Shown here piece after piece: positions 48,118 to 61,248 of a stretch of DNA of 64,000 bases. Below the pieces are notes generated by a model. That model was not told where the DNA came from, did not search any database, and worked only from the letters and a program-made list of their open reading frames with translations. This DNA comes from a bacterium. GTDB taxonomy: Bacteria > Patescibacteriota > Minisyncoccia > UBA6257 > UBA9933. Position 1 is the stretch's first letter. Each line of letters begins with the position of its first letter. The stretch spans positions 331,870 through 395,869 of the forward strand of contig JAJYHZ010000001.1 in NCBI GenBank assembly GCA_021796335.1, read 5' to 3'. A program made the translations under genes and the position numbers.

Positions 48118-48765
48118 TTAAAAAAATCTAGAAAGAGATTTTGTAATTACATCTATATTATTTTTTTGGCAATATGATTTTATATCGTTTTCAAAACACT
48201 CAGATTTTGTTTTTATGTTTTTTATAGGAGGCGGAATTAAATCGATGCTATAAACAAAATAAATAGAACCATCTTTGCCATCTAATTGCTTAATTCCTTT
48301 ATTTATCATTTCTTTTGCTTTGCTAATTAATCGTTTATAATTCTCTTCATCATTTTCCAAAAAAAACTCAAACGATCCTGCTGAGCTACCCTCAAGTATG
48401 CCACCCTGCTCCCGCATCTTTTTAATTAAATTTTTCTTAACATCACTATTATTTAAATTTTTTACTTCAATATATTTTTTAGTTTTTTCTAAAAAAATAT
48501 CTGGTCCTGAATTTTTATCAGATAAAAAAACTGGCTTATCACTTCCATATTCAGCGGCAACTAAGATTTCCGCCAATTTATCAATTAATTGATTAATATT
48601 TTTTATATTTTCAAATTTATTACGAAGTAAATTTAATTGATCCTCATTTAAATGGCTTAAATTTTTATTAACTCTATTTATCCAATTCTGATACATGCTT
48701 TGGTCATCCCGATTTATCCAATCTTTAGCAGCTTGACATTTGTTTAACACATTTAAAATATCCAT
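48118..48765 (-). CDS. Hypothetical protein, very AT-rich gene at the left edge of the accessory island
   Basis: 215-aa ORF with GC visibly below neighbours; its start codon abuts the recombinase-remnant frame. Confidence 0.4.
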   Translation of the reverse strand: MDILNVLNKCQAAKDWINRDDQSMYQNWINRVNKNLSHLNEDQLNLLRNKFENIKNINQLIDKLAEILVAAEYGSDKPVFLSDKNSGPDIFLEKTKKYIEVKNLNNSDVKKNLIKKMREQGGILEGSSAGSFEFFLENDEENYKRLISKAKEMINKGIKQLDGKDGSIYFVYSIDLIPPPIKNIKTKSECFENDIKSYCQKNNIDVITKSLSRFF

Positions 48766-48767
48766 AA

Positions 48768-48971
48768 AATATTCTTTATCAAATCAAACTTGAAACTATT
48801 TTTGAAAATAAAGATGACGCGGAAACCGAAATTATAAAGGTTATCACCTCTAAAATATCAGATAATATCGGACAATTTATAGAATTTCTGATAATTTGTC
48901 CTTCTCTGCGGTGTGTATTGGACGAAGTTCGAATGTATTTCGGACAAAATCCGCAGGATTTTGACGAATGA
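48768..48971 (+). pseudogene. Remnant of a large serine recombinase 3' end (no start; homologous to the C-terminus of recombinase 59509..61248)
   Basis: Open frame ...ETIFENKDDAETEIIKVITSKISDNIGQFIEFLIICPSL... aligns with ...ETIFENKNKAETEIIKVITSKISDNIGQFMEFLVNCPSL... of recombinase 2. Confidence 0.5.
48790..48911 (+). repeat. Direct repeat R1a (122 bp, ~88% identical to R1b at 61016-61137)
   Basis: Hand alignment; an identical 43-bp core AAATTATAAAGGTTATCACCTCTAAAATATCAGATAATATCGG. Confidence 0.7.
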
Positions 48972-49118
48972 CACTTGCGCCTCGGCCGCGCTCGACAAGC
49001 TCGCGCGGGGCAAAACCCAAAAATTTCCCATCATTTTTATTTGCGGCTCCCCCCACACCCCCGCCGCGAAGCGGAAAATTTGAAAGGAAGGAAATTTTTG
49101 GTTTTGTCGCCACCACTT
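48907..49118 (-). repeat. Inverted repeat X-A (212 bp; reverse complement of X-B 53758-53970; 1 substitution + 1 G-run indel)
   Basis: Base-by-base comparison of the reverse complement. Confidence 0.8.
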
Positions 49119-49157
49119 CACTCCTCCAAAAAGGCTTATAAGTCATATTAGCATTTT

Positions 49158-49413
49158 TGCCGGTTTTACGCCCGCCTTTTCTCCGTCGTTTGCGTCGGCC
49201 CGAGGCGCTCCCGTCTCCGCGTTTGGTGGTAGTTCGGTAATCCGCTCACACTTTGCAAGCACCTCGCACTGGCCGCTCACATCCGTTCGCGATGCCTGCT
49301 CGGTACTTGCTTCGTGTTCGCTCGGTGGCTTCGGCGGTGTCAGTGGTAGCTCTTTGTGCTTGCCCACCCGCCCAGTGCACGCACAAGCCCGTCCGCTGAC
49401 GCGGGCGGCTCCC
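49158..49413 (-). other. GC-rich (~60% GC) 255-bp non-coding element immediately 3' of the nucleotidyltransferase stop, with short internal direct repeats (CCGCTCACA x2, GCTCGGT x2, GTTCGC x2) and inverted segments; candidate structured RNA or decayed foreign fragment
   Basis: Sharp GC jump versus flanks; no plus-strand ORF; the only ORF (49143..49490, minus) is low-complexity and overlaps the NTase 3' end. Confidence 0.3.
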
Positions 49414-49416
49414 TTA

Positions 49417-50184
49417 TTACCAAATTGCTTGATTCCAATTTCCTGCCAAGGTTGTTTGTGCCAAGTTCTTAATTTTTTGTTTCTCGGCAAGCGTTAATTC
49501 ACCCGACACTTCATTACTTTGGTTTGAGGGGTCATTGATAACTTTATTTTCAAAATCATTGACTAAATAGTTCATTATTTTTACAAAATTATTCGCTGGG
49601 CTTGAGCCGATCAACCCAGTGCCTTTCAGAGCTTCAATAACTGAGAGTTCAAGATAGAAGGAAGGGAAATCTAAATTGTGTAATTTTCTCCAAATTTTTA
49701 TAGCCTTAATATCAGATACTCTACCAGAATTTTTTACAAGATTGATATGCGCATCAATGTTGGTTTTTGTCCAAGTTTTTGCTTTTCTTTTCCAAATGGA
49801 GTGGTCGAGTCCGAGAATATGATGTTTTACACCTGCAACAACATCAATTTTTAATCCGGTATGATCAATTCCAACAGATACATTTTGTTCTCGCGCTGTA
49901 TATCCAGCCCCATTAAACCTATTTCGTAGAGTGTTATAAACATTCTCAAGTGTATTGCAAGTGCTTACTGATTGGTCAAGTGAAATAAATATATCAATAT
50001 CTGTCGTACCTGTGATAGCTGTTCCTTTAGCAATCGATCCAGAAAGTTTTAGGATATATGAATGCCCATTTGCCCACGCGTGAATGTGCGGTTTTAATTC
50101 GTCAATTTTATTCTGAACAACATATGTAATGTTCGGAGTGTGTTGGGCAACAATTTGTGTTATGTATTGGTCGTTCTCGTTCAT
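49417..50184 (-). CDS. cGAS/DncV-like (SMODS/CD-NTase-like) Pol-beta nucleotidyltransferase
   Basis: GS(49-50)...TDIDIF (D62, D64) and a third acidic strand KIDVV (D114), plus the C-terminal helix AIKIWRKLHNLDFPSFYLELSVIEAL typical of cGAS/DncV-like enzymes; 255 aa. Confidence 0.6.
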   Translation of the reverse strand: MNENDQYITQIVAQHTPNITYVVQNKIDELKPHIHAWANGHSYILKLSGSIAKGTAITGTTDIDIFISLDQSVSTCNTLENVYNTLRNRFNGAGYTAREQNVSVGIDHTGLKIDVVAGVKHHILGLDHSIWKRKAKTWTKTNIDAHINLVKNSGRVSDIKAIKIWRKLHNLDFPSFYLELSVIEALKGTGLIGSSPANNFVKIMNYLVNDFENKVINDPSNQSNEVSGELTLAEKQKIKNLAQTTLAGNWNQAIW

Positions 50185-50187
50185 AAA

Positions 50188-50694
50188 TTATTTTTCGTAA
50201 CTAGTCGTAATCATTGCCGTTACAATGTCATTAAGAAGTCTCCCACGGAAGTTTGTGACAGCAGTATGTCTTTTGCCATCAAGATTTTTCATTTGCTCAT
50301 CGGGAATTCTGCCTTTTTCATATGGGGCGTACACAATCAGCGCGCATGTATCTGGCTTTTTTTCAAGAATTTGAGCAATATCACTTGCCCAGTCATGCCA
50401 GAATACAAGATAGACGGATGCTTCTTCTGCTTTCCCTATATCTTTCGCGTCTGTAATTTCAAAAATATTTTTTGTTCGAAAAAGTTTGGAGTCATTGAGC
50501 AGACTTCGCAGACTACTTACATTGTCTCCTTTGGCAAAAACTGCAATTTTTCTTTTCGCAAGCCCATTTCCAAGACGATAAAGAGCAGGAAATACTCCTC
50601 TAGTCCACAGGATAAATCCCCATATAATTCCTACCACCAAAACGATAGTTTCGATTACGCCTATAAAAGCAAGTATTTCTAACATTTTTGACAT
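50188..50694 (-). CDS. Small TM protein (N-terminal ~27-aa hydrophobic segment + ~125-aa soluble domain) encoded 3 bp upstream of the NTase; candidate effector/sensor
   Basis: 168-aa ORF, translationally coupled spacing; no recognised domain by eye. Confidence 0.4.
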   Translation of the reverse strand: MSKMLEILAFIGVIETIVLVVGIIWGFILWTRGVFPALYRLGNGLAKRKIAVFAKGDNVSSLRSLLNDSKLFRTKNIFEITDAKDIGKAEEASVYLVFWHDWASDIAQILEKKPDTCALIVYAPYEKGRIPDEQMKNLDGKRHTAVTNFRGRLLNDIVTAMITTSYEK

Positions 50695-50720
50695 AAATTT
50701 TTTGTGGATAACCCGTACTT

Positions 50721-50740
50721 GTTTAGGTTATGTTTAGGTA
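50721..50740. promoter_or_regulatory. Tandem direct repeat GTTTAGGT-TAT-GTTTAGGT in the 59-bp divergent promoter region between the TM/NTase operon and the LexA-like gene; candidate operator
   Basis: Exact 8-bp direct repeats; a TATACT -10-like hexamer lies 7 nt before the LexA ATG. Confidence 0.3.
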
Positions 50741-50753
50741 GTATACTCTAACT

Positions 50754-51380
50754 ATGGAAAAGAAGTCAAGCATGGGAACAGGCAAACCATCAAAGCGACA
50801 AGCGGAGATACTGCAGTTTGCCAGAGAATATCGTAGGGAAAATGGCTACTCGCCGGCATTGACCGAAATTGCGAAGCATTTTGGTATATCTATTCCAACA
50901 GTTCACGAGCACATTTCACATTTGCGAGAGAAGAACCTGCTTACAGCTGAAAGAGGTAAAAAACGATCTATTCAAGCACTTCGCGATCACAAGTCGCCGG
51001 TCGTAGAAATACCACTCATGGGATTTATTGCAGCGGGTGGTCCGATTGAGGCAATTAGAGAACCGGAGCCGATAGAAGTTCCGCGGAGTATGCTCTCTTC
51101 CGGTGCAAATTTTTACGCACTCAAGGTTACGGGACGAAGCATGATTGAAGAGGGCATTTCTGACGGCGACATTGTGATTGTACGCGAACAGCAAAGTGTT
51201 GATGACGGAGAAAAAGCCGTTGCGTATATGCCGGACAGAAATGAAGTTACGCTTAAAAAAATTTATAGAGAGAAGGATCGCGTTAAACTTGTGCCCGCCA
51301 ACAAATACATGAAGCCTTTTTACGAAACGAATGTGGAAATACAAGGAAAGGTCGTGGGGGTTCTTAGGAAAGAATTTTAA
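50754..51380 (+). CDS. LexA-like repressor (N-terminal wHTH + C-terminal S24 peptidase, Ser/Lys dyad)
   Basis: N-terminal KRQAEILQFAREYRRENGYSPALTEIAKHFGISIPTVHEHISHLREKNLL; C-terminal GRSMIEEGISDGDIVIV...VTLKKI. Confidence 0.8.
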   Translation: MEKKSSMGTGKPSKRQAEILQFAREYRRENGYSPALTEIAKHFGISIPTVHEHISHLREKNLLTAERGKKRSIQALRDHKSPVVEIPLMGFIAAGGPIEAIREPEPIEVPRSMLSSGANFYALKVTGRSMIEEGISDGDIVIVREQQSVDDGEKAVAYMPDRNEVTLKKIYREKDRVKLVPANKYMKPFYETNVEIQGKVVGVLRKEF

Positions 51381-51383
51381 TAA

Positions 51384-52973
51384 ATGATAAAAAATTTTAT
51401 GTCTTTAGTATCTATACCAGAAGCATCAAAATGGGCTACCGATTATCTTGAAAAAGAGGTATCCCCGACAAATATTTCTTACCTTGTGCAATATGGCAAG
51501 GTAAAAAAGCATGGCGAGAACGGCTCCACCTTAGTTGATCTTGGTGATCTTAAAAAATACTACGAATCTTACAATGGAAAACGCGAGATAAGTTGGAAAA
51601 AAAACCTCGGTAGTGATTTAAACTGGACACTTTCATTTGATAACTTACGAGAGAAAGATACAACCAAGCATGTACATAGGCTCCATCCATACAAAGGTAA
51701 ATACATCCCCCAGCTCGTTGAGTATTTTATAGATACACACACGGACGATTTCAAAAAGGAGGCATATTTTAAATCTGGCGATATTATTCTTGATCCATTT
51801 TTGGGTTCAGGAACAACACTTATTCAAGCACTGGAAATGGGTATCCATTCCGTTGGGATAGATGTTTCGGAATTTAATTGCATGATTGCCAGTTGTAAAG
51901 CGACACACTACAACAATGAGTATTTGCAAAAAGCGATCAAAAAAATGCTCTCTGCGCTAGACACATTTGAGCATGATAATAAAATCCAAGAATTTGAAAC
52001 TGAGCTTTTGGCTGAGCTTGCTAAGTTTAATAATGTCCATTTCCCTGGTTACGATTTTAAGTACAAACTAAATCAGGGAAATTTTAACGAAAAGAAATTT
52101 TCTACCGAGAAAGAGCGCGAGTTTTTGCCTGTATACCAAAAATTGCTCAAAAAGCACGCAATCAAACTAAAACAAGATAAATCAGACTCTTTCCTCGATA
52201 TCTGGTTTATGGACAATGTTCGCCGAGAGATAGATCATGTCTTTCAGACGATCAAACAAGAAAAAGATGTTAAGACCCGCAAAATCCTTGCGCTTATTTT
52301 GAGTCGAACAATCAGGTCATGTCGAGCAACAACGCATAGCGATTTGGCAACGCTCAAGGAGCCACAGCTTACGACATACTACTGCTATAAACACAAGAAA
52401 ATATGCAAACCACTTTTCTCGATTAAGACAATGCTCAATCGCTATGCGTTTGATACATTGAGTCGAATCCGTGAATTTAACACCTTACGCAAGCCGGTTC
52501 ACTACTCCGCAATAACTGGTGACTCTCGAACTGTAGATATTTTTGAGAAAGTAGAAAAACAGAATCCAGAATTTTCTAAAATTCTTAAGAAACAAAAAAT
52601 AGCAGGTATTTTTTGTTCACCTCCTTATGTTGGACAAATTGACTATCACGAACAGCACGCCTACGCTTATGACTTACTTGGATTTAAACGAAAAGATGAT
52701 TTGGAAATAGGCCCATTGTATAAAGGGCAAGGACAAGAAGCTCGTCGATCGTACGCGCAAGGAATTGCCGATGTGTTAAATAATTGTAAACAGTATCTCA
52801 AAGCAGATTTTGATATTTTCCTTGTAGCAAATGACAAATATAATCTTTATCCAAAAATTGCAGAAAAGTCAGGTATGAAGATTGTAAATCAATTCAAGCG
52901 CCCAGTGTTAAATCGTACGGAACGCGATCGTAATCCTTACTCAGAAATAATTTTCCACTTTAAATCAAAATAA
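51384..52973 (+). CDS. DNA methyltransferase, alpha-class amino-MTase (motif I DPFLGSGTT N-terminal, motif IV SPPY C-terminal), N4C/N6A-type
   Basis: FxGxG AdoMet motif ILDPFLGSGTTLIQA and catalytic IFCSPPY ~280 aa later. Confidence 0.75.
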   Translation: MIKNFMSLVSIPEASKWATDYLEKEVSPTNISYLVQYGKVKKHGENGSTLVDLGDLKKYYESYNGKREISWKKNLGSDLNWTLSFDNLREKDTTKHVHRLHPYKGKYIPQLVEYFIDTHTDDFKKEAYFKSGDIILDPFLGSGTTLIQALEMGIHSVGIDVSEFNCMIASCKATHYNNEYLQKAIKKMLSALDTFEHDNKIQEFETELLAELAKFNNVHFPGYDFKYKLNQGNFNEKKFSTEKEREFLPVYQKLLKKHAIKLKQDKSDSFLDIWFMDNVRREIDHVFQTIKQEKDVKTRKILALILSRTIRSCRATTHSDLATLKEPQLTTYYCYKHKKICKPLFSIKTMLNRYAFDTLSRIREFNTLRKPVHYSAITGDSRTVDIFEKVEKQNPEFSKILKKQKIAGIFCSPPYVGQIDYHEQHAYAYDLLGFKRKDDLEIGPLYKGQGQEARRSYAQGIADVLNNCKQYLKADFDIFLVANDKYNLYPKIAEKSGMKIVNQFKRPVLNRTERDRNPYSEIIFHFKSK

Positions 52974-52976
52974 TTT

Positions 52977-53759
52977 ATGGCTTTATCTAAAGAACAAGTA
53001 AATAGTGTTGAAGAAGTTTTGAAAGCAAGTTTGCGTAATAAGTTTCAAAACTATAAACCCGAACCGGCATCAATGCCTTTTCATACACGACTACTCGGCA
53101 AGGATAGACTTGCTTTATATTCTTTCATTCATTCCCTCAACACAAACTTCGGCACAAGTATTTTTGAGCCGGTCGGTCTTGCTCTGGCTCAGAAAAACTT
53201 CAAAATGGCCGTTTCGCAAGCTACAGCTGGAAATCAGATCAGTTCCGCCGCCCAAGCAGAAATTCAGAAGATTATTGATGGTCTTACAACGGCAACGAGT
53301 ACCCCTAATAAAAAAGCTGAAATTGAAAGAATAAGAAAAGTTTGTCAGACAGGAGAGATGATTAAAGTAAAACCAACAAAGGTTGATTTAATGTTTGAGT
53401 CAAAAGACGGTGCATTTTATTTGTTTGATATTAAGACTGCAAAACCAAATGCCGGCGGATTCAAAGAGTTTAAACGCACCCTGCTTGAGTGGGTTGCTGT
53501 TGTTTTGGCAAATAAACCAGATGCGAATATAAATACTTTTATTGCAATTCCTTACAATCCTTACGAGCCAGAACCCTATACTCGATGGACAATGCGAGGA
53601 ATGCTTGATCTTGAAAATGAGCTTAAAGTAGCAGACGAATTTTGGGACTTTCTCGGAGGCAAGAATACTTACAAGGACTTACTCGATTGTTTCGAGCGTG
53701 TAGGTATTGAGTTGAGAGATGAAATTGATGACTACTTTAAGCGCTTCAACAAGAAATAA
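52977..53759 (+). CDS. Type II restriction endonuclease-like, PD-(D/E)XK (TdeIII-like)
   Basis: 4 bp after the MTase; PD...D-I-K (VDLMFESKDGAFYLFDIKTAKPN); size/pattern of small Type IIP REases. Confidence 0.55.
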   Translation: MALSKEQVNSVEEVLKASLRNKFQNYKPEPASMPFHTRLLGKDRLALYSFIHSLNTNFGTSIFEPVGLALAQKNFKMAVSQATAGNQISSAAQAEIQKIIDGLTTATSTPNKKAEIERIRKVCQTGEMIKVKPTKVDLMFESKDGAFYLFDIKTAKPNAGGFKEFKRTLLEWVAVVLANKPDANINTFIAIPYNPYEPEPYTRWTMRGMLDLENELKVADEFWDFLGGKNTYKDLLDCFERVGIELRDEIDDYFKRFNKK

Positions 53760-53970
53760 GTGGCGGCGACAAAACCAAAAATTTCCTTCCTTTCAAATTT
53801 TCCGCTTCGCGGCGGGGGGTGTGGGGGGAGCCGCAAATAAAAATGATGGGAAATTTTTGGGTTTTGCCCCGCGCGAGCTTGTCGAGCGCGGCCGAGGCGC
53901 AAGTGTCATTCGTCAAAATCCTGCGGATTTTGTCCGAAATACATTCGAACTTCGTCCAATACACACCGCA
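53758..53970 (+). repeat. Inverted repeat X-B (213 bp; partner of X-A), starting at the REase stop codon
   Basis: See X-A. Confidence 0.8.
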
Positions 53971-54085
53971 AAAATTGAAAATCGGAATTGGAAGCCGAAA
54001 TGGGGTCGCGCCGCAGGCGCGACACAAACGCATTCCCGCCAAAAATTCCCGAATCCAAAAGGTTTTTCCACGCTCCGCGTGGCTC
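53966..54085 (+). repeat. Inverted repeat Y-B (120 bp; identical reverse-complement partner Y-C at 55487-55606), immediately upstream of recombinase 1
   Basis: Base-by-base comparison. Confidence 0.8.
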
Positions 54086-54106
54086 CTCGTTTGCCAATAC
54101 AATTCT

Positions 54107-55699
54107 ATGAATAATCAAACCAAAAAGTTTTTCATATATACTCGCAAGTCTACGGACGACAAAGACAGACAGGTTCGTAGTATTTCCGACCAACTTTCGG
54201 AATTGAAAGAGTTAGCAAGGAAAGAAGATTTAGATATTGTTGATGTCTTTGTCGAAAAGCAGACCGCCAAAATACCAGGCCGTCCGGTGTTTGGTGAAAT
54301 GTTGGAGCGAATGGAAAAAGGTGAAGCAACTGGTATTTTGGCGTGGCATCCCGATAGACTTGCTCGCAACTCGGTAGATGGAGGAAAAATCATCTACCTC
54401 ATTGATACTGGTGTAATTTCTGAAATGAAATTCCCAACTTTTTGGTTTGATCCGACACCGCAAGGCAAATTCATGCTTTCAATCGCTTTTTCGCAATCCA
54501 AATATTATGTGGACAATTTGTCGGAGAATATTAAGCGTGGTCATCGTAACAAAGTGAAGGACGGAATATGGCCTCAAATGTCGCCGCTTGGCTATGTGAA
54601 CAAAAACAAGCGCATTGTGCCCAACCCCGAAATTGCTCCACTTATTAAAAAGACATTTGAGGCATATGCAACAGGTTCTTTCACTTTGCGCGAACTCCGC
54701 GACAAATTTAACGCACTTGGATTGAAGCGAAAAAGCGGAAAGGAACTTGCGGTGTCGAATTATCAAAAACTTCTCAAAAATCCTATTTACACTGGCTTAA
54801 TGCGGTATAACGGAGAGATTTTTGAGGGTAAGCACGAACCGATTATTTCAAAGAAACTTTTTGATTCTGTTCAGGAAGTGATGATGAGAAAATCTAAGCC
54901 GAAATCTCGCGGACTGAAACCATATTTGTATCGCGGATTTTTCCGTTGCGGAGAATGTGGTTGCTTCATCACCACCGAAACGCAGAAAGGTCATAACTAT
55001 TTACGATGTACGAAACGGAAAAATCTTTGCTCACAAAGATACACGCGAGAAGAAATCATCACTTCCGAAATTCAAAAGGAAATCAAAAAAGTTTCTTTGC
55101 CACTCGATTGGGCTAAATGGATGTTGGCGGAAAACGAAAAGGACAAATCAGTAGAAGCCCAATCGTCTACGCTTTTTGCCGACAAAACAAAAGCCGATAT
55201 TTCTCTTTTGGATTCTAAAATAGAGAAGCTGATGAACGCTTATTTAGAGAGCGCACTTTCACTAGAGGAATATCGGGACGCTAAAAGTGTGTTGGTCAGT
55301 CAAAAACAGCTTCTCAAAGAGAAATTATCGGCTTTTGAGCAAAAAGCGAATAATCGGTTCGAACTTACCGAAAAGTTTTTGAAATACAATATAGAATTGG
55401 CAAACGAGGGAACAAATGAAGAAAAACTTCATTTGTTCAAAAAAGTCGGTTCGAACTTTCAGATTAAGGATCGAACCGTCTTTTTTGAGCCACGCGGAGC
55501 GTGGAAAAACCTTTTGGATTCGGGAATTTTTGGCGGGAATGCGTTTGTGTCGCGCCTGCGGCGCGACCCCATTTCGGCTTCCAATTCCGATTTTCAATTT
55601 TTGCGGAGAGTGGTAGACGACGTTCGCACCTATTGGCAAACAACGCCTAACCGCGTATTTATCCCTAATCTTACACTAGAAACAGCAAAAATCAATTGA
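54107..55699 (+). CDS. Large serine recombinase 1 (resolvase/invertase N-terminal domain + recombinase domain + zinc ribbon + coiled coil)
   Basis: YTRKSTDDKDRQ (catalytic Ser region), ILAWHPDRLARN, C-x2-C...C zinc ribbon FRCGECGCFITT...YLRCTKRK. The ORF-track N-terminal extension (53819-54106) is read-through of repeat X/Y; the C-terminus overlaps Y-C. Confidence 0.8.
   Translation: MNNQTKKFFIYTRKSTDDKDRQVRSISDQLSELKELARKEDLDIVDVFVEKQTAKIPGRPVFGEMLERMEKGEATGILAWHPDRLARNSVDGGKIIYLIDTGVISEMKFPTFWFDPTPQGKFMLSIAFSQSKYYVDNLSENIKRGHRNKVKDGIWPQMSPLGYVNKNKRIVPNPEIAPLIKKTFEAYATGSFTLRELRDKFNALGLKRKSGKELAVSNYQKLLKNPIYTGLMRYNGEIFEGKHEPIISKKLFDSVQEVMMRKSKPKSRGLKPYLYRGFFRCGECGCFITTETQKGHNYLRCTKRKNLCSQRYTREEIITSEIQKEIKKVSLPLDWAKWMLAENEKDKSVEAQSSTLFADKTKADISLLDSKIEKLMNAYLESALSLEEYRDAKSVLVSQKQLLKEKLSAFEQKANNRFELTEKFLKYNIELANEGTNEEKLHLFKKVGSNFQIKDRTVFFEPRGAWKNLLDSGIFGGNAFVSRLRRDPISASNSDFQFLRRVVDDVRTYWQTTPNRVFIPNLTLETAKIN
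55487..55606 (-). repeat. Inverted repeat Y-C (120 bp) overlapping the recombinase 1 3' end
   Basis: See Y-B. Confidence 0.8.
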
Positions 55700-55964
55700 A
55701 GTTTTTGTTTTGTTTATTCTAAAAAGCCAGTGAAATAATAAAAAATCGGCGCGAGAGCGCGATTTTTTATTATTTGGCGGTTTAAAATTAATTTTGGCCT
55801 ATTGACAAGCTACGAAACGAAGAGTAAAGTACCGCTAACGGAGCGGAAAGAAAAGCACCGCAAAGTATCGCACCATAAGTAAAGTACCAATTGTTTGTTA
55901 AAAAGATTTATTATTGCTTAGATAAGTTAAATATATTCGGCGCCGCGAAATTTTCGCGGATTTT

Positions 55965-56984
55965 TTATTTACCATCTATTATCTTTTTTATAATATCAAT
56001 ATTAGTCAAATTTGGAGCTTCTTCTTTTGAGAGATATCCTGAAATACTAGGATCAAAAATTGACTGTGCAACTTGAATAATTAAAGCATCTTTTATTTGT
56101 GGATCATCGGTAGAATTTATAAAGGCTTTAAACGAAGCTAATGCGTTTGCTCTATGCTTGTTAATCACTGCTAAATGATTATGTGCATTCAAGTTCTTAA
56201 CACACTGAGCAATAAATAAAAATCCAGCAGATAAAATAAAAAGTTTTGTAATAGCTACACTTACGGATAAAGTAGTACCAACATTATTAAAGTAATGGTA
56301 GTAAATTACTATTAATATAACGGCGAGCACTATTTCTCCAACGATTGACCCAGCAAGACATTTCCACCAAAAGGTAGTTTTTTCTTGATGATATTGTGCT
56401 TGTTCTCCAAATATTTCGGAGTATTTAACTACAACATCTTTAGTGCTAAATTTTCTTGCTTCTTCAATAATTTCATTTATTTTGTTTTTTGTTTCCTCAC
56501 CTTGTGTTTTTGCTTCATTTAATATTTTTGCAACTTCCTCATTTGTATTTTTTGCTTCTTGATAGATTTTCTTAAAAGATTGATCAGTATTATTTAGCTC
56601 TTCTCTAATTTTATTAAAACTACCTTCTTGAATTAATATAAAGAAATAGTGGGAATTAAACGAATTGAAAAAATTTTGCCACTGGCTATTTATTTGAGAA
56701 ATTAAATTACGTCTTTGTCCAGCCGGATCTCCAGAATTAACATCAAAAGAGGAAATTTGATTTGAAAAATTCAAGAAATTCTGTAAAAAACTCTCCAACT
56801 CGCTCTCTCTTTGAGAAAAAATTTGCCTAAAAATGCTTAGATTTTTTATAAAGAAATTTAAAAATTCTAAAAATAATTTTAAAGTTGAATCAACCTCCTC
56901 AAAATTCAAAGGTCCTAAATCTTTTCTTTTTAACGATTCTGCGTCTATCGAATTTAATTTATTAACTAACTCATCATTTATCAT
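55965..56984 (-). CDS. Orphan hypothetical protein: N-terminal helical/coiled-coil region + C-terminal 2-TM module
   Basis: 339-aa very AT-rich ORF; TM pair WWKCLAGSIVGEIVLAVILIVIYY / LSVSVAITKLFILSAGFLFIA; sits between recombinase 1 and the R-M 2 operon. Confidence 0.45.
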   Translation of the reverse strand: MINDELVNKLNSIDAESLKRKDLGPLNFEEVDSTLKLFLEFLNFFIKNLSIFRQIFSQRESELESFLQNFLNFSNQISSFDVNSGDPAGQRRNLISQINSQWQNFFNSFNSHYFFILIQEGSFNKIREELNNTDQSFKKIYQEAKNTNEEVAKILNEAKTQGEETKNKINEIIEEARKFSTKDVVVKYSEIFGEQAQYHQEKTTFWWKCLAGSIVGEIVLAVILIVIYYHYFNNVGTTLSVSVAITKLFILSAGFLFIAQCVKNLNAHNHLAVINKHRANALASFKAFINSTDDPQIKDALIIQVAQSIFDPSISGYLSKEEAPNLTNIDIIKKIIDGK

Positions 56985-56999
56985 ATTTATTAAAAATTT

Positions 57000-57620
57000 C
57001 TATTTAGCAGTTTCAAAAATCTTTTTAACTAATTCTTTTCTCGCATAAAACGCCCGGCTTGTTGAGCCATGGCCGGCTCCTTTTGTCCTTGCTTGTATCC
57101 ACTTGCCGTCTCTGCCAGTTAAACTGCTGAATCCCTTTTTGATCAATTTATTTCTTATAAAATCGTAATCAGCTTTTATCTCTTTGATTAATTCGTCAGT
57201 TTCAACAAAATCCAAACTAACAACTTTTATTATTTTAGCCTCTTGAGAATTTTTGCCATTCCACATAACCGCGCAAAAAATCATTGACTTTAATTTCGCC
57301 CAACAGTGGCTTTCAAAAAATTCGTGTTTCTTTAATTCTTCCGGATTAATCATTGTTATCGCCATTGTTTCTTTTGGCACAAGTTCGTTTTTAACATAGC
57401 GAAACGCCACTGATTTTAATTCATATGAAAGTCCGTTCGGCGCTTTTGAAACATTTGTTTGAAGTCCGGCTAACCGTTCCAAAATTAAGCCCTTCCAGCC
57501 TTTATTTTGTTTGCCGGTTTCATAAGTTGTTATTTTGTATTGCAGGGCTAATTTTCTTAAATCTTTGCCAATATATTTTTTAAGATTTTTAATTGCGTTT
57601 GCTCTCGTAACGATTTTCAT
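57000..57620 (-). CDS. MutH/Sau3AI/DpnII-family restriction endonuclease (GATC-type)
   Basis: KGWKGLILERLAGL...GLSYELKSV matches the MutH/Sau3AI core. Confidence 0.7.
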   Translation of the reverse strand: MKIVTRANAIKNLKKYIGKDLRKLALQYKITTYETGKQNKGWKGLILERLAGLQTNVSKAPNGLSYELKSVAFRYVKNELVPKETMAITMINPEELKKHEFFESHCWAKLKSMIFCAVMWNGKNSQEAKIIKVVSLDFVETDELIKEIKADYDFIRNKLIKKGFSSLTGRDGKWIQARTKGAGHGSTSRAFYARKELVKKIFETAK

Positions 57621-57623
57621 ATT

Positions 57624-58436
57624 TTAATTTGTGAATAATTTATTTTTTAAATTTTTATCCAAATATTCAAACCTTTTTATTGATAAATCTAAATAATTTT
57701 TATTATTATCAATGCCGATAAATTTTCTGCCTAATAAATTTGCCATTATTCCGGTTGTTGAGCTTCCAGTAAAAGGATCAATGATCAAATCCCCTTGATT
57801 AGTGCTTGCCAATATAATTCTTTTTAGCAAATCTTCCGGTTTTTGTGTTGGATGTTTGCCAAATTTTTTTTCTATCGGCTTAGGCGTACCAATTGCCCAA
57901 ACAGATCTCATTTGCTTGTTTGGTTTTTTAATAAAATCTTCCGGCCAATTGCCGTTTTTCATTTTATCGTAATTAAAAGTATGTTTTGCTTTTTTATCTT
58001 TCCTCGCCCATATCAACGTTTCGTGGCTGGCAGTAAAAAATCTGCAACTTAAATTTGGCGAAGCGCTGGGCTTAAACCATGAAACATCATTGAGGATATG
58101 GAATTTAGAAACCTGCAAAGCAAAACCGCAAATATAAATTGAGTGGTAAGTTCCGCTAATCCAAATTGTGCCATGAGGTTTTAAAACTCTTTTACATTCT
58201 TGGATCCAGTCCAAATGAAAATCAAAATCTTTCTTCAATCCATTGCTTCGATCCCATTTGCCTTTATCAACGCTGACCATTTTCCCAGCATGCACCGTAA
58301 AGCCGCCGTTAGATAAAAAATAGGGCGGATCGGCAAAAATCATATCAACCGAATTTTCAGGAAGCGTTTTTAATAGTTCTAAGCTATCAGTATTGTATAA
58401 GGTAAAATCGCCTTTTTTATAATATGGCTTGTGCAT
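57624..58436 (-). CDS. Beta-class DNA N6-adenine/N4-cytosine methyltransferase (DPPY before FxGxG), cognate of the DpnII-like REase
   Basis: FADPPYF ... IIDPFTGSSTTG. Confidence 0.8.
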   Translation of the reverse strand: MHKPYYKKGDFTLYNTDSLELLKTLPENSVDMIFADPPYFLSNGGFTVHAGKMVSVDKGKWDRSNGLKKDFDFHLDWIQECKRVLKPHGTIWISGTYHSIYICGFALQVSKFHILNDVSWFKPSASPNLSCRFFTASHETLIWARKDKKAKHTFNYDKMKNGNWPEDFIKKPNKQMRSVWAIGTPKPIEKKFGKHPTQKPEDLLKRIILASTNQGDLIIDPFTGSSTTGIMANLLGRKFIGIDNNKNYLDLSIKRFEYLDKNLKNKLFTN

Positions 58437-58438
58437 AA

Positions 58439-59392
58439 TTATTTATTTAAATTGTAGCTTTGTTTAACAAGCGCGAAAATAGCGTCGGTATCTTTTGTGT
58501 TTTCAAATTTGATTTCATAATCGCCATTACCCCAATGTCCGATTATTTTAGGTTTTGTTAAATCACGAGCAAGCTTTTTCGGATCATTTAATTGTCCACT
58601 TTTTACATTAAGAAATATTTTTAAGCCATATTGTTTAATGACAATATCAACAAAATTAGTTGAGGTTTTATAGGCAATATATTTTGCCTTTGCTTCTTCA
58701 ATAATATTTTGATCAAGGGAAAGTATGCGCTCTCTTAAATCTTGAAATAATTTTAAAGTTTCTTTTTTTATTCCAGACAAATGATCATCCACTGAATAAA
58801 TTTTTTGCAGTTGCCCCTCTTTTGATTTCTGCGTCTTGCCCTTTTTTATAATTCCAGCTGTTGAAATTTTAATTTTTTGATAATTTTCTGGCTCAACATA
58901 CAAAATATTTTCGTTATAAATACGATAACGCAAAAGTTCAATATTTATTGGTAAAATATCCGCTGTATCAAGATCAAATTTATTATAAGATTCAGCTATG
59001 CAAATAACGCGAGGAGAATCCCAGTCAATATCTATATTAATTTTTTTATTTTGGCAAAGCAATTTAAAATCTGCTTTATGATCTAAAAGCCAACGCAAAT
59101 AAGACAATCCTTGATTTATAACATTATCATTTTGATTTTTCTTATATTCGATAATGCAAGGTGATCCATTTTTATCTATTCCCAAAGTATCCATTCTTCC
59201 ACCCCAACCCGTCGAATATTCATGAGCAAGAAAATTTATATTCAAAATTTCTTCCAAATTATTTTCAAACAATTCTTGCAAGTTTTTTTCTAAATCTAAC
59301 TCTTTTGCAGTTAATTTCTTAACAATTAAGTTGTTTATTTTAAATAAGGCCATAGCTCTAATTGTTGATAATTTTACGCCAATTTTAGCCAA
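58439..59392 (-). CDS. PD-(D/E)XK nuclease-superfamily-like protein (N-terminal Hjc/NucS-like D...EYK motif) with uncharacterised C-terminal domain; first gene of the R-M 2 operon
   Basis: GWGGRMDTLGIDKNGSPCIIEYKK; 3-bp spacing to the MTase. Confidence 0.4.
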   Translation of the reverse strand: MAKIGVKLSTIRAMALFKINNLIVKKLTAKELDLEKNLQELFENNLEEILNINFLAHEYSTGWGGRMDTLGIDKNGSPCIIEYKKNQNDNVINQGLSYLRWLLDHKADFKLLCQNKKINIDIDWDSPRVICIAESYNKFDLDTADILPINIELLRYRIYNENILYVEPENYQKIKISTAGIIKKGKTQKSKEGQLQKIYSVDDHLSGIKKETLKLFQDLRERILSLDQNIIEEAKAKYIAYKTSTNFVDIVIKQYGLKIFLNVKSGQLNDPKKLARDLTKPKIIGHWGNGDYEIKFENTKDTDAIFALVKQSYNLNK

Positions 59393-59508
59393 TAAACAAC
59401 ATCATTTCACGAGTCAAACTTGACTCGCAAACAATGCTACAAACTCTCAAAATAAGCCTATTGCGCTATTTTCAGCAAAGTAATAATATCGTCGTAATAA
59501 CAAACTTT

Positions 59509-61248
59509 ATGGACACCGAAACCAAGCTCAAATACATCTCCTACACCCGAAAAAGCACTGAAAGCGAGGACAGGCAGATTTTATCGTTAGATGATCAAGA
59601 AAAAGAATTGAAGGTTATTGAAAAACGCAATAATTTGAATATCGTCCAAAGATTTGCCGGAACTTCCAACGGCGAAAGCCAATCCGCCCATAAAAGAGGC
59701 AGGCCGATATTTAATTTCATAATGGGTCAGATCGATAAAGGCAAAGCCAACGCTTTATTAGTTTGGCATCCCAACAGATTAGCCAGAAACGCTTATGACG
59801 GAGGTTTGATTATAACTTTAATGGATGAAAATAAGTTAATTGAAGTAAAAACCGCCCATAGGACTTATTCCAATACTCCGGAGGATAAATTTATGCTCCA
59901 ATTGGAATTCGGCATGGCCAAGAAATCATCGGACGACAACAGCGTTGCCGTAAAAAGAGGGTTAAAAACAAAACTGGAAATGGGTTGGTATCCCAGTAGA
60001 GCGCCGTTAGGATATTTGAATTCAATAACCAAAGAAAAAGGATCAAATGAAATAATCAAAGATCCTGAAAGGTTTGAATTAATAAAAAGAATGTGGCAAA
60101 TGATGATTACAGGAAATTATACTCCGCCTCAAATATTACAAATTGCCAACAAGGAATGGAATTTGAAAACCAGACCGACCAAGAAATACGCAGGGCTAAA
60201 ATCTTTATCCCGAAGCGCGATTTATAAAATCTTCACTAATCCTTTTTATTACGGATTTTTTGAGTATCACAATAATTTATACAAAGGCAATCACGAACCA
60301 ATGATAACCGAGGAGGAATTTGACCGCGTGCAAAAATTCTTAGGCAGACGAGGAAATCCCAGAGCCATAACAAAACGTTTCGCTTTTACCGGATTAATGA
60401 AATGCGGAAATTGCGGAGCCATGATAACCGCCGAGGAGAAAACCAAAAGGCAAAAGAACGGCAATGTCCACCATTATGTTTATTACAGGTGTACCAAAAG
60501 AAAAGACGAACATTGCCCTGAAAAAGCTATAAGGTTAGACGAATTAAATAATCAAATAAACCAGATAATCAACGCCTTAACAATCTCTGACGAATTCAGA
60601 AATTGGGCCATTAAATACCTGCACGAAATAAGAAAAACCCAAGCTAAGGCTAATGAAAAAGGAATTGAAAACAAGCAAAAGGAATTAACCAGAATTATAA
60701 AGCAATTAGACAGCCTTTTACTCAAATACACGGCTCCGGAAAATTCAGACGGAAATCTTATCTCAAGCGACGAATATCAAGCTCTCAAAACCCGCCTTAT
60801 TAAGCAAAAATTAGCCCTTGAAAGCGATTTAACGGATCAAGGAAAGCAAATCAACGAATGGGTTGAATTAAGCGAAAGAACGTTCAATTTTGCCAGATAC
60901 GCGAGCATCCATTTCAACAACGGAGATATGGAAACCAAAAGAGCTATTTTCGCATGCTTAGGTTCTCACCTTATTATAAAAAATCAAAAACTGAGCATTG
61001 ATCTGCATCCAATGTTTGAAACTATTTTTGAAAATAAGAATAAAGCAGAAACTGAAATTATAAAGGTTATCACCTCTAAAATATCAGATAATATCGGGCA
61101 ATTTATGGAATTTTTGGTAAATTGTCCTTCGTTGCGGAGGCGGAAGGATTCGAACCTTCGAGAGGATTTCTCCCCTAACATCTTAGCAGGATGCTGCTTT
61201 AAACCACTCAGCCACGCCTCCACACTAATTGAGTTTAGGAAATATTAA
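59509..61248 (+). CDS. Large serine recombinase 2 (start MDTETKLKYISYTRKST...; C-terminal boundary uncertain because the ORF reads through the antisense tRNA-Ser)
   Basis: YTRKSTESEDRQ, LLVWHPNRLARN, zinc ribbon MKCGNCGAM...YYRCTKRKDEHC, C-terminal coiled coil; colinear with recombinase 1. Confidence 0.8.
   Translation: MDTETKLKYISYTRKSTESEDRQILSLDDQEKELKVIEKRNNLNIVQRFAGTSNGESQSAHKRGRPIFNFIMGQIDKGKANALLVWHPNRLARNAYDGGLIITLMDENKLIEVKTAHRTYSNTPEDKFMLQLEFGMAKKSSDDNSVAVKRGLKTKLEMGWYPSRAPLGYLNSITKEKGSNEIIKDPERFELIKRMWQMMITGNYTPPQILQIANKEWNLKTRPTKKYAGLKSLSRSAIYKIFTNPFYYGFFEYHNNLYKGNHEPMITEEEFDRVQKFLGRRGNPRAITKRFAFTGLMKCGNCGAMITAEEKTKRQKNGNVHHYVYYRCTKRKDEHCPEKAIRLDELNNQINQIINALTISDEFRNWAIKYLHEIRKTQAKANEKGIENKQKELTRIIKQLDSLLLKYTAPENSDGNLISSDEYQALKTRLIKQKLALESDLTDQGKQINEWVELSERTFNFARYASIHFNNGDMETKRAIFACLGSHLIIKNQKLSIDLHPMFETIFENKNKAETEIIKVITSKISDNIGQFMEFLVNCPSLRRRKDSNLREDFSPNILAGCCFKPLSHASTLIEFRKY
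61016..61137 (+). repeat. Direct repeat R1b (122 bp; partner of R1a), the 3' end of recombinase 2, abutting the tRNA-Ser 3' end
   Basis: See R1a. Confidence 0.7.
61135..61221 (-). tRNA. tRNA-Ser (anticodon GCU), long variable arm
   Basis: Hand fold: acceptor GGAGGCG/CGCCUCC, D-stem GCU/AGC, anticodon stem GCAUC/GAUGU with loop CUGCUAA, variable arm AGGGGA-GAAA-UCCUCU, T-arm GAAGG-UUCGAAU-CCUUC, discriminator G. Confidence 0.7.

Follow-up and report, generated by a model that had tools for sequence, protein, structure and literature searches.

A GC-rich end element of a Patescibacteria defence-island family is a candidate structured RNA of the island backbone

Several described systems resemble parts of the locus treated here. 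Staphylococcal cassette chromosome mec (SCCmec), with its CcrAB enzymes, is an island of the large-serine-recombinase type that carries variable cargo and sits at the 3′ end of a conserved gene. Integrons use the tyrosine recombinase IntI and attC sites of ~60-130 nt with R and L boxes, one per cassette. At the RNA level, the stabilizer and terminator hairpins of 3′ untranslated regions (3′-UTRs), together with repetitive extragenic palindromic (REP) sequences and bacterial interspersed mosaic elements (BIME), are GC-rich stem-loops that are co-transcribed downstream of operons and protect against 3′ exonucleases. Islands with only cis-acting mobility sites have been described as 'iOriT' minimal hitchers (Ares-Arroyo et al., bioRxiv 10.64898/2026.01.13.699239), and the DIMPL pipeline yields candidate structured non-coding RNAs from long GC-rich intergenic regions in AT-rich genomes (PMC8723152; PMC11109978). 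In this study, we analyzed a GC-rich non-coding element in a 64,000-nt stretch of a Patescibacteria genome (GCA_021796335.1, contig JAJYHZ010000001.1, positions 331,870 to 395,869; the whole stretch is called the window), starting from an earlier note on positions 49158-49413. The element lies at one end of a small genomic island, directly downstream of a nucleotidyltransferase (NTase) gene that is paired with a gene for a transmembrane (TM) protein. Genomic islands of serine recombinases that are inserted at tRNA genes and carry defence systems are already known. What appears to be new relative to the literature found, as judged from sequence comparison, is a cargo slot bracketed by inverted copies of an attachment (att) core plus palindrome, and a one-sided structured element of ~290 nt without a match in Rfam; the motif was not reported in the literature searched.

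The GC-rich element is the inner ~290 nt of an end module of ~510 nt, in which it is followed by a 110-nt palindrome and then by the att core. It comprises 49158-49413 plus the 3′ strand of a closing helix. The distribution of the element was compared with that of the NTase. In a set of 80 genome loci with NTase homologues (37-99% identity; loci carry L numbers), only L005, whose NTase is 99% identical, carries the element. The contigs L085-L092, with a 94%-identical NTase, also carry it, and contigs with 87-90%-identical NTases have at most its first ~40 nt in common. By blastn and the covariance model R1, the element is absent from the 89 other NTase loci (79 genome and 10 metagenome loci). 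R1 describes the central rod of the fold and finds one copy in the window, at 117 bits (E = 9e-35), the next best match scoring 11 bits. At the left end of the adjoining island 2, R1 found no analogous element. A scan of metagenome contigs with a 28-nt pattern from the most conserved block of the element yielded 95 loci. The NTase is present in one of these (L129, which is the same contig as L088); the other 94 copies sit behind unrelated cargo. In those 94 loci, the alignment with the window starts just past where the NTase stop codon lies, or at ~49350, crosses the palindrome into the att core, and ends at 48908, where the conservation among 41 full-length copies also stops. An RNA associated with CBASS (cyclic-oligonucleotide-based antiphage signaling system) or with CD-NTases (cGAS/DncV-like nucleotidyltransferases) thus failed the co-occurrence test. 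The earlier note had offered an RNA belonging to the NTase module and had asked whether the element travels with the NTase; it follows the island backbone instead. The element is very probably a component of the island backbone rather than an accessory of the NTase.

The comparison of the window with L005 points in the same direction. The TM-NTase cassette (49404-50712) is 98-100% identical between the two, versus ~78% for the restriction-modification (RM) and LexA-like genes, and the element shows 42-80% identity per 100-nt window, or ~80% in its gap-free part, with indels. Because of this unequal divergence, the cassette and the element have different histories. It is the cassette (L005:3410-4780), and not the element, that is anomalously conserved, and its identity boundaries are sharp, in the LexA-TM intergenic region and 13 nt past the NTase stop codon. 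The pattern suggests that the TM-NTase cassette alone was recently swapped between two islands.

We folded an alignment of 74 distinct element copies (A7) with RNAalifold. The minus strand, which has the sense of the cargo, gives a consensus of -28.5 kcal/mol with 35 pairs, compared with -10.6 kcal/mol and 9 pairs for the plus strand. The A7 cells are 98.0% paired, versus 26-39% when the partners are slid by 1-3 columns. Changes on both sides of a pair occur in 9 pairs and 53 cells; shuffles give 3.3 ± 1.4 pairs and 11 ± 6 cells, and none of 500 shuffles reaches either value. Among one-sided changes on the minus strand, 20 pairs have G.U variants versus 5 with A.C, and G-to-A and C-to-U changes are about equally common in unpaired columns. 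Transversions amount to 0.8 cells per paired column and 5.1 per unpaired column. These are the signs of a structured RNA, namely helices on one strand with compensatory changes, with the caveats that the independent events are few and that the structure comes from the same alignment. The earlier note's suggestion of a conserved secondary structure on the would-be 3′-UTR strand of the TM-NTase operon is supported by the consensus fold and the compensatory changes, and we consider it likely that a single-strand fold has been selected on the minus strand.

The helices differ in how they vary. The variants of hairpin 1 stay paired (C.A, U-A, U.G, and C-G), and its slot between the constant motifs AGGGAGC and YUUGUGCGCGCAC is always a hairpin, even in L107, L111, L130, and L131, where unrelated hairpins occupy it. 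Hairpin 1 is not a canonical terminator, because CUUGUG and no U-tract follows, and from the model of the fold it is possibly a non-canonical 3′-end hairpin. The junction hot spot at 49354/49355 is the place where L005 and clade 2 bear a 47-nt hairpin insertion, where the inverted repeat of L085 starts, and where L093 diverges. In the rod, the helices are separated by GA/GA and GAA/GAA internal loops, and L124 and L179 have CGCC/GGCG in place of GCAA.CAC/GUG.UUGC. One pair of the apical hairpin H is UA in 31, CG in 23, and UG in 17 copies, another is GC in 47 and AU in 20, and base-paired insertions extend the tip of this hairpin in L108, L124, and L179. In the most conserved block, one G-C pair is G.U in 30 of the 74 copies. 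The closing helix shows two compensatory differences between clades, AAAAGGC/GCCUUUU versus AAAGGAC/GUCCUUU and A-U versus G-C. A mutual-information scan was dominated by the two-clade phylogeny, and only pairs of hairpin H and the closing helix stood out as Watson-Crick. An alternative hairpin, UGCGA-GGUGN-UUGCR, is 97.6% paired but has no both-side changes and competes with the better-supported rod; it was rejected.

The short direct repeats noticed earlier are real (TGTGAGCGG twice and GAGCG four times on the minus strand), and they correspond to the two strands of a helix unit, GCGAAC...GUGAGC, that occurs twice, at the rod base and in hairpin H. The element contains no tandem array and no periodicity of 3 nt or ~11 nt, and an iteron-like or helical-phase spacing of the GAGCG motifs was rejected as not significant. 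The pseudoknot-like pairings proposed with the repeats did not hold: GCAAGCAC/GTGCTTGC and GCACTGG/CCAGTGC are 83% and 82% paired in the family, with uncompensated G.G, C.A, and T.T cells, and GTGCTTGC pairs instead with GCAAGUAC at 49300-49307. A search against Rfam 15 (4227 families) at gathering thresholds, as the earlier note advised, returned only tRNAs from the window and seven related loci. In E-value mode, 48700-49600 and L175:6900-7700 gave chance-level scores of 16.8-22.4 bits, compared with gathering scores of 33-100. With its modeled fold and no counterpart in Rfam, the element is a candidate for a new RNA motif.

The element is non-coding. Its GC content is 63% at 49200-49399 (200-nt window), compared with 35-37% in the NTase gene (49417-50184, minus strand) and 39% in the whole window. 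The jump described in the earlier note is therefore present, and 49158-49413 is the GC-richest part of the window, but the richness does not stop at 49158: it runs on to ~48960, broken by the AT-rich arms of the palindrome. High GC is kept in all element copies although the hosts are AT-rich. The 115-aa ORF (open reading frame) at 49143-49490 on the minus strand starts with TTG, overlaps the NTase ORF by 74 nt as had been reported, and has no Pfam or PADLOC match. It had been taken for the only minus-strand ORF, but a second of 46 aa exists; the plus strand, for which no ORF had been noted, has none of at least 60 aa, though two of 47-48 aa are present. Searched against 5.8 billion protein clusters, the concatenated six-frame translation had no homologue at E ≤ 1e-3, which leaves no sign of the protein fragment from a GC-rich taxon that the earlier note had wished to see checked. 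An origin as decayed DNA of a high-GC donor is conceivable; it would leave the helix-specific constraint unexplained.

Indels of 1 nt are polymorphic across the family. A Shine-Dalgarno-like GGAGGAG is conserved at 49121-49127, overlapping the 3′ end of the closing helix. We rejected a small ORF behind it, a possible excision factor, since a suitably spaced start codon is present in 3 of 40 copies; among these 40, only the window has a long ORF after the motif. A coding gene, fragment, or remnant was rejected for lack of codon periodicity, a homologue, a conserved frame, and a conserved start codon. No similarity to phage or plasmid DNA was found, and two scans of a viral contig collection were empty. 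A hypervariable target, or one like those of diversity-generating retroelements, was also rejected, as the divergence is like that of the rest of the island and the substitutions are not A-specific.

How might such an element work? The evidence is, in our judgement, evenly divided on whether it acts as RNA at all, and equally so on the fuller statement that a backbone element works as a structured RNA in the sense of the cargo. Transcription leaving any cargo operon in the slot would make the element RNA, so that it would serve as a generic 3′-UTR module, the most likely of the roles considered. In the manner of a terminator, hairpin 1 would either create the transcript's 3′ end or shield it. 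The rod with its tandem G.A units might bind a protein, stop exonucleases and read-through, or both. It would thereby stabilize cargo mRNAs and insulate the palindrome and att site from cargo transcription. In the excised circle, the rod might shield the convergent recombinase gene from antisense cargo transcription. A specific role of this sort as 3′ end, stabilizer, or insulator is put forward only tentatively from the modeled structure. The RNA model predicts a minus-strand transcript continuous with the NTase, with 3′ ends at hairpin 1 and/or after GCCUUUUU (~49126).

A number of points weigh against an RNA of this kind. The fold of the single sequence barely beats shuffles (minus strand, z = -1.5; plus strand, z = -0.5); of the folding analyses the earlier note had called for, the family alignment supports the minus-strand helices and the single-sequence signal is weak. 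The identity of the element to its relatives (72-83%) equals that of the four-fold degenerate sites of the recombinase (69-78%). Beyond the helices, selection can therefore not be seen. The family is young, and in a young family alignability alone is no evidence of selection. The copies fall mostly into two clades, so many covarying cells trace to few events. Since the structure was scored on its own alignment, the slid-partner control and the contrast between paired and unpaired columns are inflated. The invariance of the most conserved block is uninformative, because the search pattern itself dictated these positions. Neither a promoter nor a canonical intrinsic terminator was detected in the scan of 48700-49600, and ~290 nt is far more than a terminator requires. 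Canonical terminators of the A-tract/GC-hairpin/T-tract type lie at the left end of island 2 (55735-55770 and 55938-55975), so classical intrinsic terminators exist in this genome, unlike in the end module of island 1. Strand-specific folding would also fit a single-stranded DNA (ssDNA) intermediate.

Table 1. Features of island 1 and its end module in the window (positions of the window; sequences of the fold are read on the minus strand).
Feature	Position	Strand	Description and basis
GC-rich non-coding element	49124-49416	-	GC profile; conserved in 95 metagenome loci, L005, and L085-L092; no Rfam or protein match
Hairpin 1	49389-49408	-	CCGCCCGC-GUCA-GCGGACGG; starts 9 nt past the NTase stop codon
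Part 1b	49355-49386	-	CUUGUGCGUGCACUGGGCGGGUGGGCAAGCACA; 10-nt near-palindrome plus G-runs; ends at the junction hot spot 49354/49355
Rod (imperfect hairpin, ~100 nt)	49236-49336	-	Helices GC/GC, ACAC/GUGU, GCAA/UUGC, CAC/GUG
Apical hairpin H	49273-49293	-	UCGYGARC-GAA(U)-GYGARCGG; tandem G.A
Most conserved block	49183-49210	-	GAGCGCCUCGGGCCGACGCAAACGACGG; two small hairpins; source of the search pattern
Closing helix	49126-49183	-	GAGAAAAGGC (49174-49183) with GCCUUUUUGG (49126-49135); ~39 nt enclosed
Imperfect palindrome (110 nt)	49007-49118		AT-rich arms 49013-49048 and 49070-49105; GC-rich center
att core (P′ arm), left end of island 1 (attL)	48907-49006		Crossover TGCGG at 48907-48911
Cargo operon upstream of the element	49417-50694	-	CBASS-like 1TM effector (50188-50694) and minimal CD-NTase (49417-50184)
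Other island 1 cargo	50754-53759	+	LexA-like S24 repressor, N6/N4 methyltransferase, TdeIII-type endonuclease; Pfam, PADLOC
Copy B	53758-54085		Inverted recombinase 3′ end, crossover 53966-53970, att core, palindrome
Large serine recombinase (rec1), island 1	54107-55699	+	Pfam Resolvase, Recombinase, and Zn_ribbon_recom

The islands of this family are ~5-8 kb long, occur in Patescibacteria, and are integrated at the 3′ end of tRNA-Ser by a large serine recombinase. Long contigs show a recurrent order of tRNA-Ser, recombinase, inverted copy B, cargo, GC element, palindrome, and att core, with recombinases 84-93% identical to rec1. Such homologues adjoin tRNA-Ser in L104, L118, L142, L154, and L156, and in L175 and L178 the 93%-identical homologues are cut by the contig end. 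A large number of contigs are interrupted within the palindrome, in keeping with its nature as a repeat. The last upstream ORF is directed toward the element in 80 of 83 loci by crude ORF calls. The element is one-sided only, and the B-side copies never contain it. A second, inverted copy of the palindrome is at 53758-53869. The palindrome (49007-49118; L005:5125-5220) is flipped between the two clades of the family, L005 and clade 2 having the flipped form, and also between copies A and B within one island.

The genes of this segment are bracketed by three copies of a single repeat: A (48896-49118), B (53758-54085, inverted), and C (55487-55634). Their junctions read W-TGCGG-P′ in A, X-TGCGG-P′ in the reverse complement of B, and X-TGCGG-Z in C, X being the 3′ end of the recombinase gene. 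Within the att core, a stretch of ~68 nt is shared with L005 at 100% identity and ends where the flanks begin to differ. The 3′ end of rec1 spans attR (crossover 55602-55606). Copy B lies between cargo and recombinase (repeat matches I1, 97%, I2, 94%, and I3), and every well-covered family member retains it, in effect a second, inverted attP-like site. Flank W (48790-48906) shows 88% identity to the 3′ end of another serine recombinase gene (59434-61140), which abuts tRNA-Ser(GCT) (61134-61221, minus strand) through the same TTGCGG. The simplest reading of these junction sequences is that islands have accumulated in tandem at the tRNA-Ser 3′ end, in which case island 2 would extend over ~55607-61134 and island 1 over ~48907-55606, with the remnant of an older island at 48790-48906 on the left. 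On the same reading, A would be attL and C attR of island 1, and B an internal inverted attP-like copy. The element itself was rejected as an attP or attL site, as the crossover is at 48907-48911 and the element begins ~215 nt further in. The recombination site considered in the earlier note is thus close by, but it is not the element; 49158-49413 is 250-500 nt away from the crossover.

Island 2 has a recombinase of its own and a minus-strand cargo that is RM-like. The two recombinase ORFs each extend over the crossover site (55487-55699 and 61026-61248), so the last ~20-35 residues of the recombinases depend on the integration state; the tail of the second recombinase is an antisense translation of tRNA-Ser. 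In L106 and L134 (also in L137 and L189), the GC element and palindrome accompany recombinases whose identity to rec1 is only 48-49%. L106 and L134 lack the P′ core or have a different one, and just past the far side of their recombinase is a gene for tRNA-Arg or tRNA-Leu. This arrangement makes the element independent of a particular att specificity, and the non-coding module seems to have passed from one recombinase lineage to another. In L085 (1598-2140), part 2 of the GC element forms a 221-nt inverted repeat (91% identical) around half a palindrome and abuts a PIG-L gene without an att core, which makes this a rearranged or degenerate island end. The L005 island lacks a recombinase; at L005:41-431, copy B lies ~90 nt past a Ser-type tRNA, which ARAGORN calls Asn-GTT, and the island appears to be an immobilized derivative.

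Both proteins of the cargo operon match PADLOC models over the full length, the NTase Cyclase PDLC00803 (E = 3e-77) and the TM protein Effector 1TM PDLC00664 (E = 2e-62). Against PDB sequences, the NTase matched only CD-NTase entries, the top one being CdnC (6p80) with a weak E = 2e-5, and the TM protein had no match. On the basis of the PADLOC and PDB results, the pair is called a CBASS-like minimal CD-NTase with a 1TM effector. Identity as Hailong (HalA/HalB) is unsupported at the sequence level, with no HalB match and both proteins under PADLOC CBASS models. The LexA-like S24 repressor with its helix-turn-helix domain (50754-51380) is transcribed divergently from the TM-NTase pair and conserved in the related islands L086-L091. 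Through this repressor, the CBASS-like operon or the RM genes could be subject to SOS-type control. The NTase homologues of L093, L094, L099, and L100, 87-90% identical, belong to a three-gene variant that encodes, instead of the 1TM effector, proteins of 175 aa and 445 aa (the latter SMODS + AGS_C) alongside the 257-aa NTase. Across the family, the cargo comprises 187 protein clusters, mostly RM or other defence genes, and is dominated by methyltransferases, restriction enzymes, GmrSD, ResIII, and AAA_15/21 ATPases. An omega-RNA of TnpB/IscB or a retron msr-msd was rejected, as the partner gene is neither in island 1 nor among the 25 most frequent cargo families.

Other explanations of the element were weighed against a cargo-sense RNA of the backbone. 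The one that survives best, although we think it unlikely, is that DNA rather than RNA is the active form: a cis-acting mobility site, folded as ssDNA or extruded, such as a site resembling an origin of transfer (oriT) that a helper conjugation system would use, a single-strand origin at which the complementary strand would be made once DNA has been taken up, or a packaging site. The islands encode no transfer or replication gene besides the recombinase, yet the family is widespread and mosaic. The element adjoins both the palindrome and the att site, and its occurrence with recombinases of different specificity, together with the palindrome, is as for an att-independent module. The strand specificity of the fold would suit ssDNA, in which G.T pairs are tolerated too. 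On the other hand, no nic-site motif or relaxase was identifiable in the window region examined, though inverted repeats are present, and a position of the cargo in a leading region would imply transfer of the plus strand, which does not fold. The tandem G.A motifs and GNRA-like loops of the element are typical features of RNA. Islands with only an oriT and with defence genes near it have been described (bioRxiv 10.64898/2026.01.13.699239), and many Patescibacteria have type IV secretion systems, but relaxases are rare in them, with 109 homologues in 103 genomes (PMC12102498).

It is somewhat less probable that the element encodes a separate small regulatory RNA, trans-acting or antisense, which may for instance control recombinase expression or excision in the circle. 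Such an RNA would share the conserved minus-strand fold, and the highly conserved unpaired motifs (the GAA/GAA and GA/GA loops and GGAGGAG) would suit it. An extended -10-like sequence, TGCTAAAAT/TGCTAATAT, is conserved near 49145-49153 and faces outward; it was read by eye and not called by the scan. In the circle, the module would sit between the convergent cargo and recombinase genes, and a cargo-sense transcript would be antisense to the 3′ end of the recombinase gene. However, no promoter was detected upstream of the rod, no complementarity to a target was identified, and the C-terminal tail of the recombinase that would be covered is variable.

We give still less weight to a broader proposal, in which the GC element and the two palindromes form a self-contained non-coding cassette for mobility and expression, acting as folded RNA or ssDNA. 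Any cargo between the palindromes would then become transferable or recombination-competent in Patescibacteria, and the cassette would recruit the serine recombinase or a host or helper factor, or act as an origin of transfer or priming. If true, this would be a step dependent on nucleic-acid structure in the life cycle of a serine-recombinase island that has not been described before.

A functionless relic, that is, GC-rich foreign DNA or a decayed gene hitch-hiking with a young and fast-spreading backbone, is improbable. It would account for an element that diverges like four-fold degenerate sites, for the insignificant single-sequence fold, and for the indels and the junction hot spot, to which internal deletions in L152 and L187 can be added. 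It does not fit the compensatory changes, base-paired extensions, and replaced hairpins, the strong strand asymmetry of the consensus fold, or the empty six-frame search. Nor does it fit a GC richness that is kept in every copy in AT-rich hosts and an element that persists beside different recombinases. A structured or guide-like RNA that is functionally part of the CBASS-like TM-NTase module can be dismissed almost entirely: apart from the position directly downstream of the NTase on the same strand, it is contradicted by the 89 NTase loci lacking the element, the 94 copies behind unrelated cargo, and the different divergence of cassette and element.

Patescibacteria have tiny genomes, and their acquisition and exchange of defence genes are poorly understood. 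The islands described here are a compact and apparently widespread family that shuttles RM, CBASS-like, and other defence systems. If the element is needed for cargo expression or transfer, it would explain the function and mobility of islands that have a single protein-coding backbone gene. The R1 model or the 28-nt pattern can serve as a sequence tag for defence islands in metagenomes of the candidate phyla radiation.

Compared with the known systems, the islands are like SCCmec in that they use a large serine recombinase, insert site-specifically at the 3′ end of a housekeeping gene, accrete in tandem, and vary in cargo. They differ in the tRNA-Ser target, the far smaller size, the inverted att core plus palindrome that bracket the slot, and the one-sided structured element of ~290 nt. 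To our knowledge, a tRNA-Ser target, inverted brackets, and a one-sided structured element have not been described for SCC elements. With integron cassettes and attC sites they have in common the interchangeable, co-oriented cargo, the imperfect palindromes, and a constraint on the structure of one strand rather than on sequence; unlike in integrons, the enzyme is a serine recombinase, each island has one slot, and the structured element is away from the crossover. Like the iOriT islands, they are small, combine an integrase with a conserved non-coding module, carry defence genes beside that module, and form mosaic families. In contrast to those islands, no relaxase, nic site, or helper was identified here, the host phylum is relaxase-poor (PMC12102498), and the folded strand is the cargo-sense one, a misfit with leading-region logic. 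The element resembles DIMPL candidates as a GC-rich intergenic region with covariation-supported helices in an AT-rich genome, and differs from them in matching none of the Rfam 15 families. As with 3′-UTR and REP hairpins, the hairpin-1 slot is conserved as structure and not as sequence, whereas the element as a whole, unlike them, is ~290 nt long, has a defined multi-helix architecture with conserved purine-rich loops, and occurs once per window in one island family.

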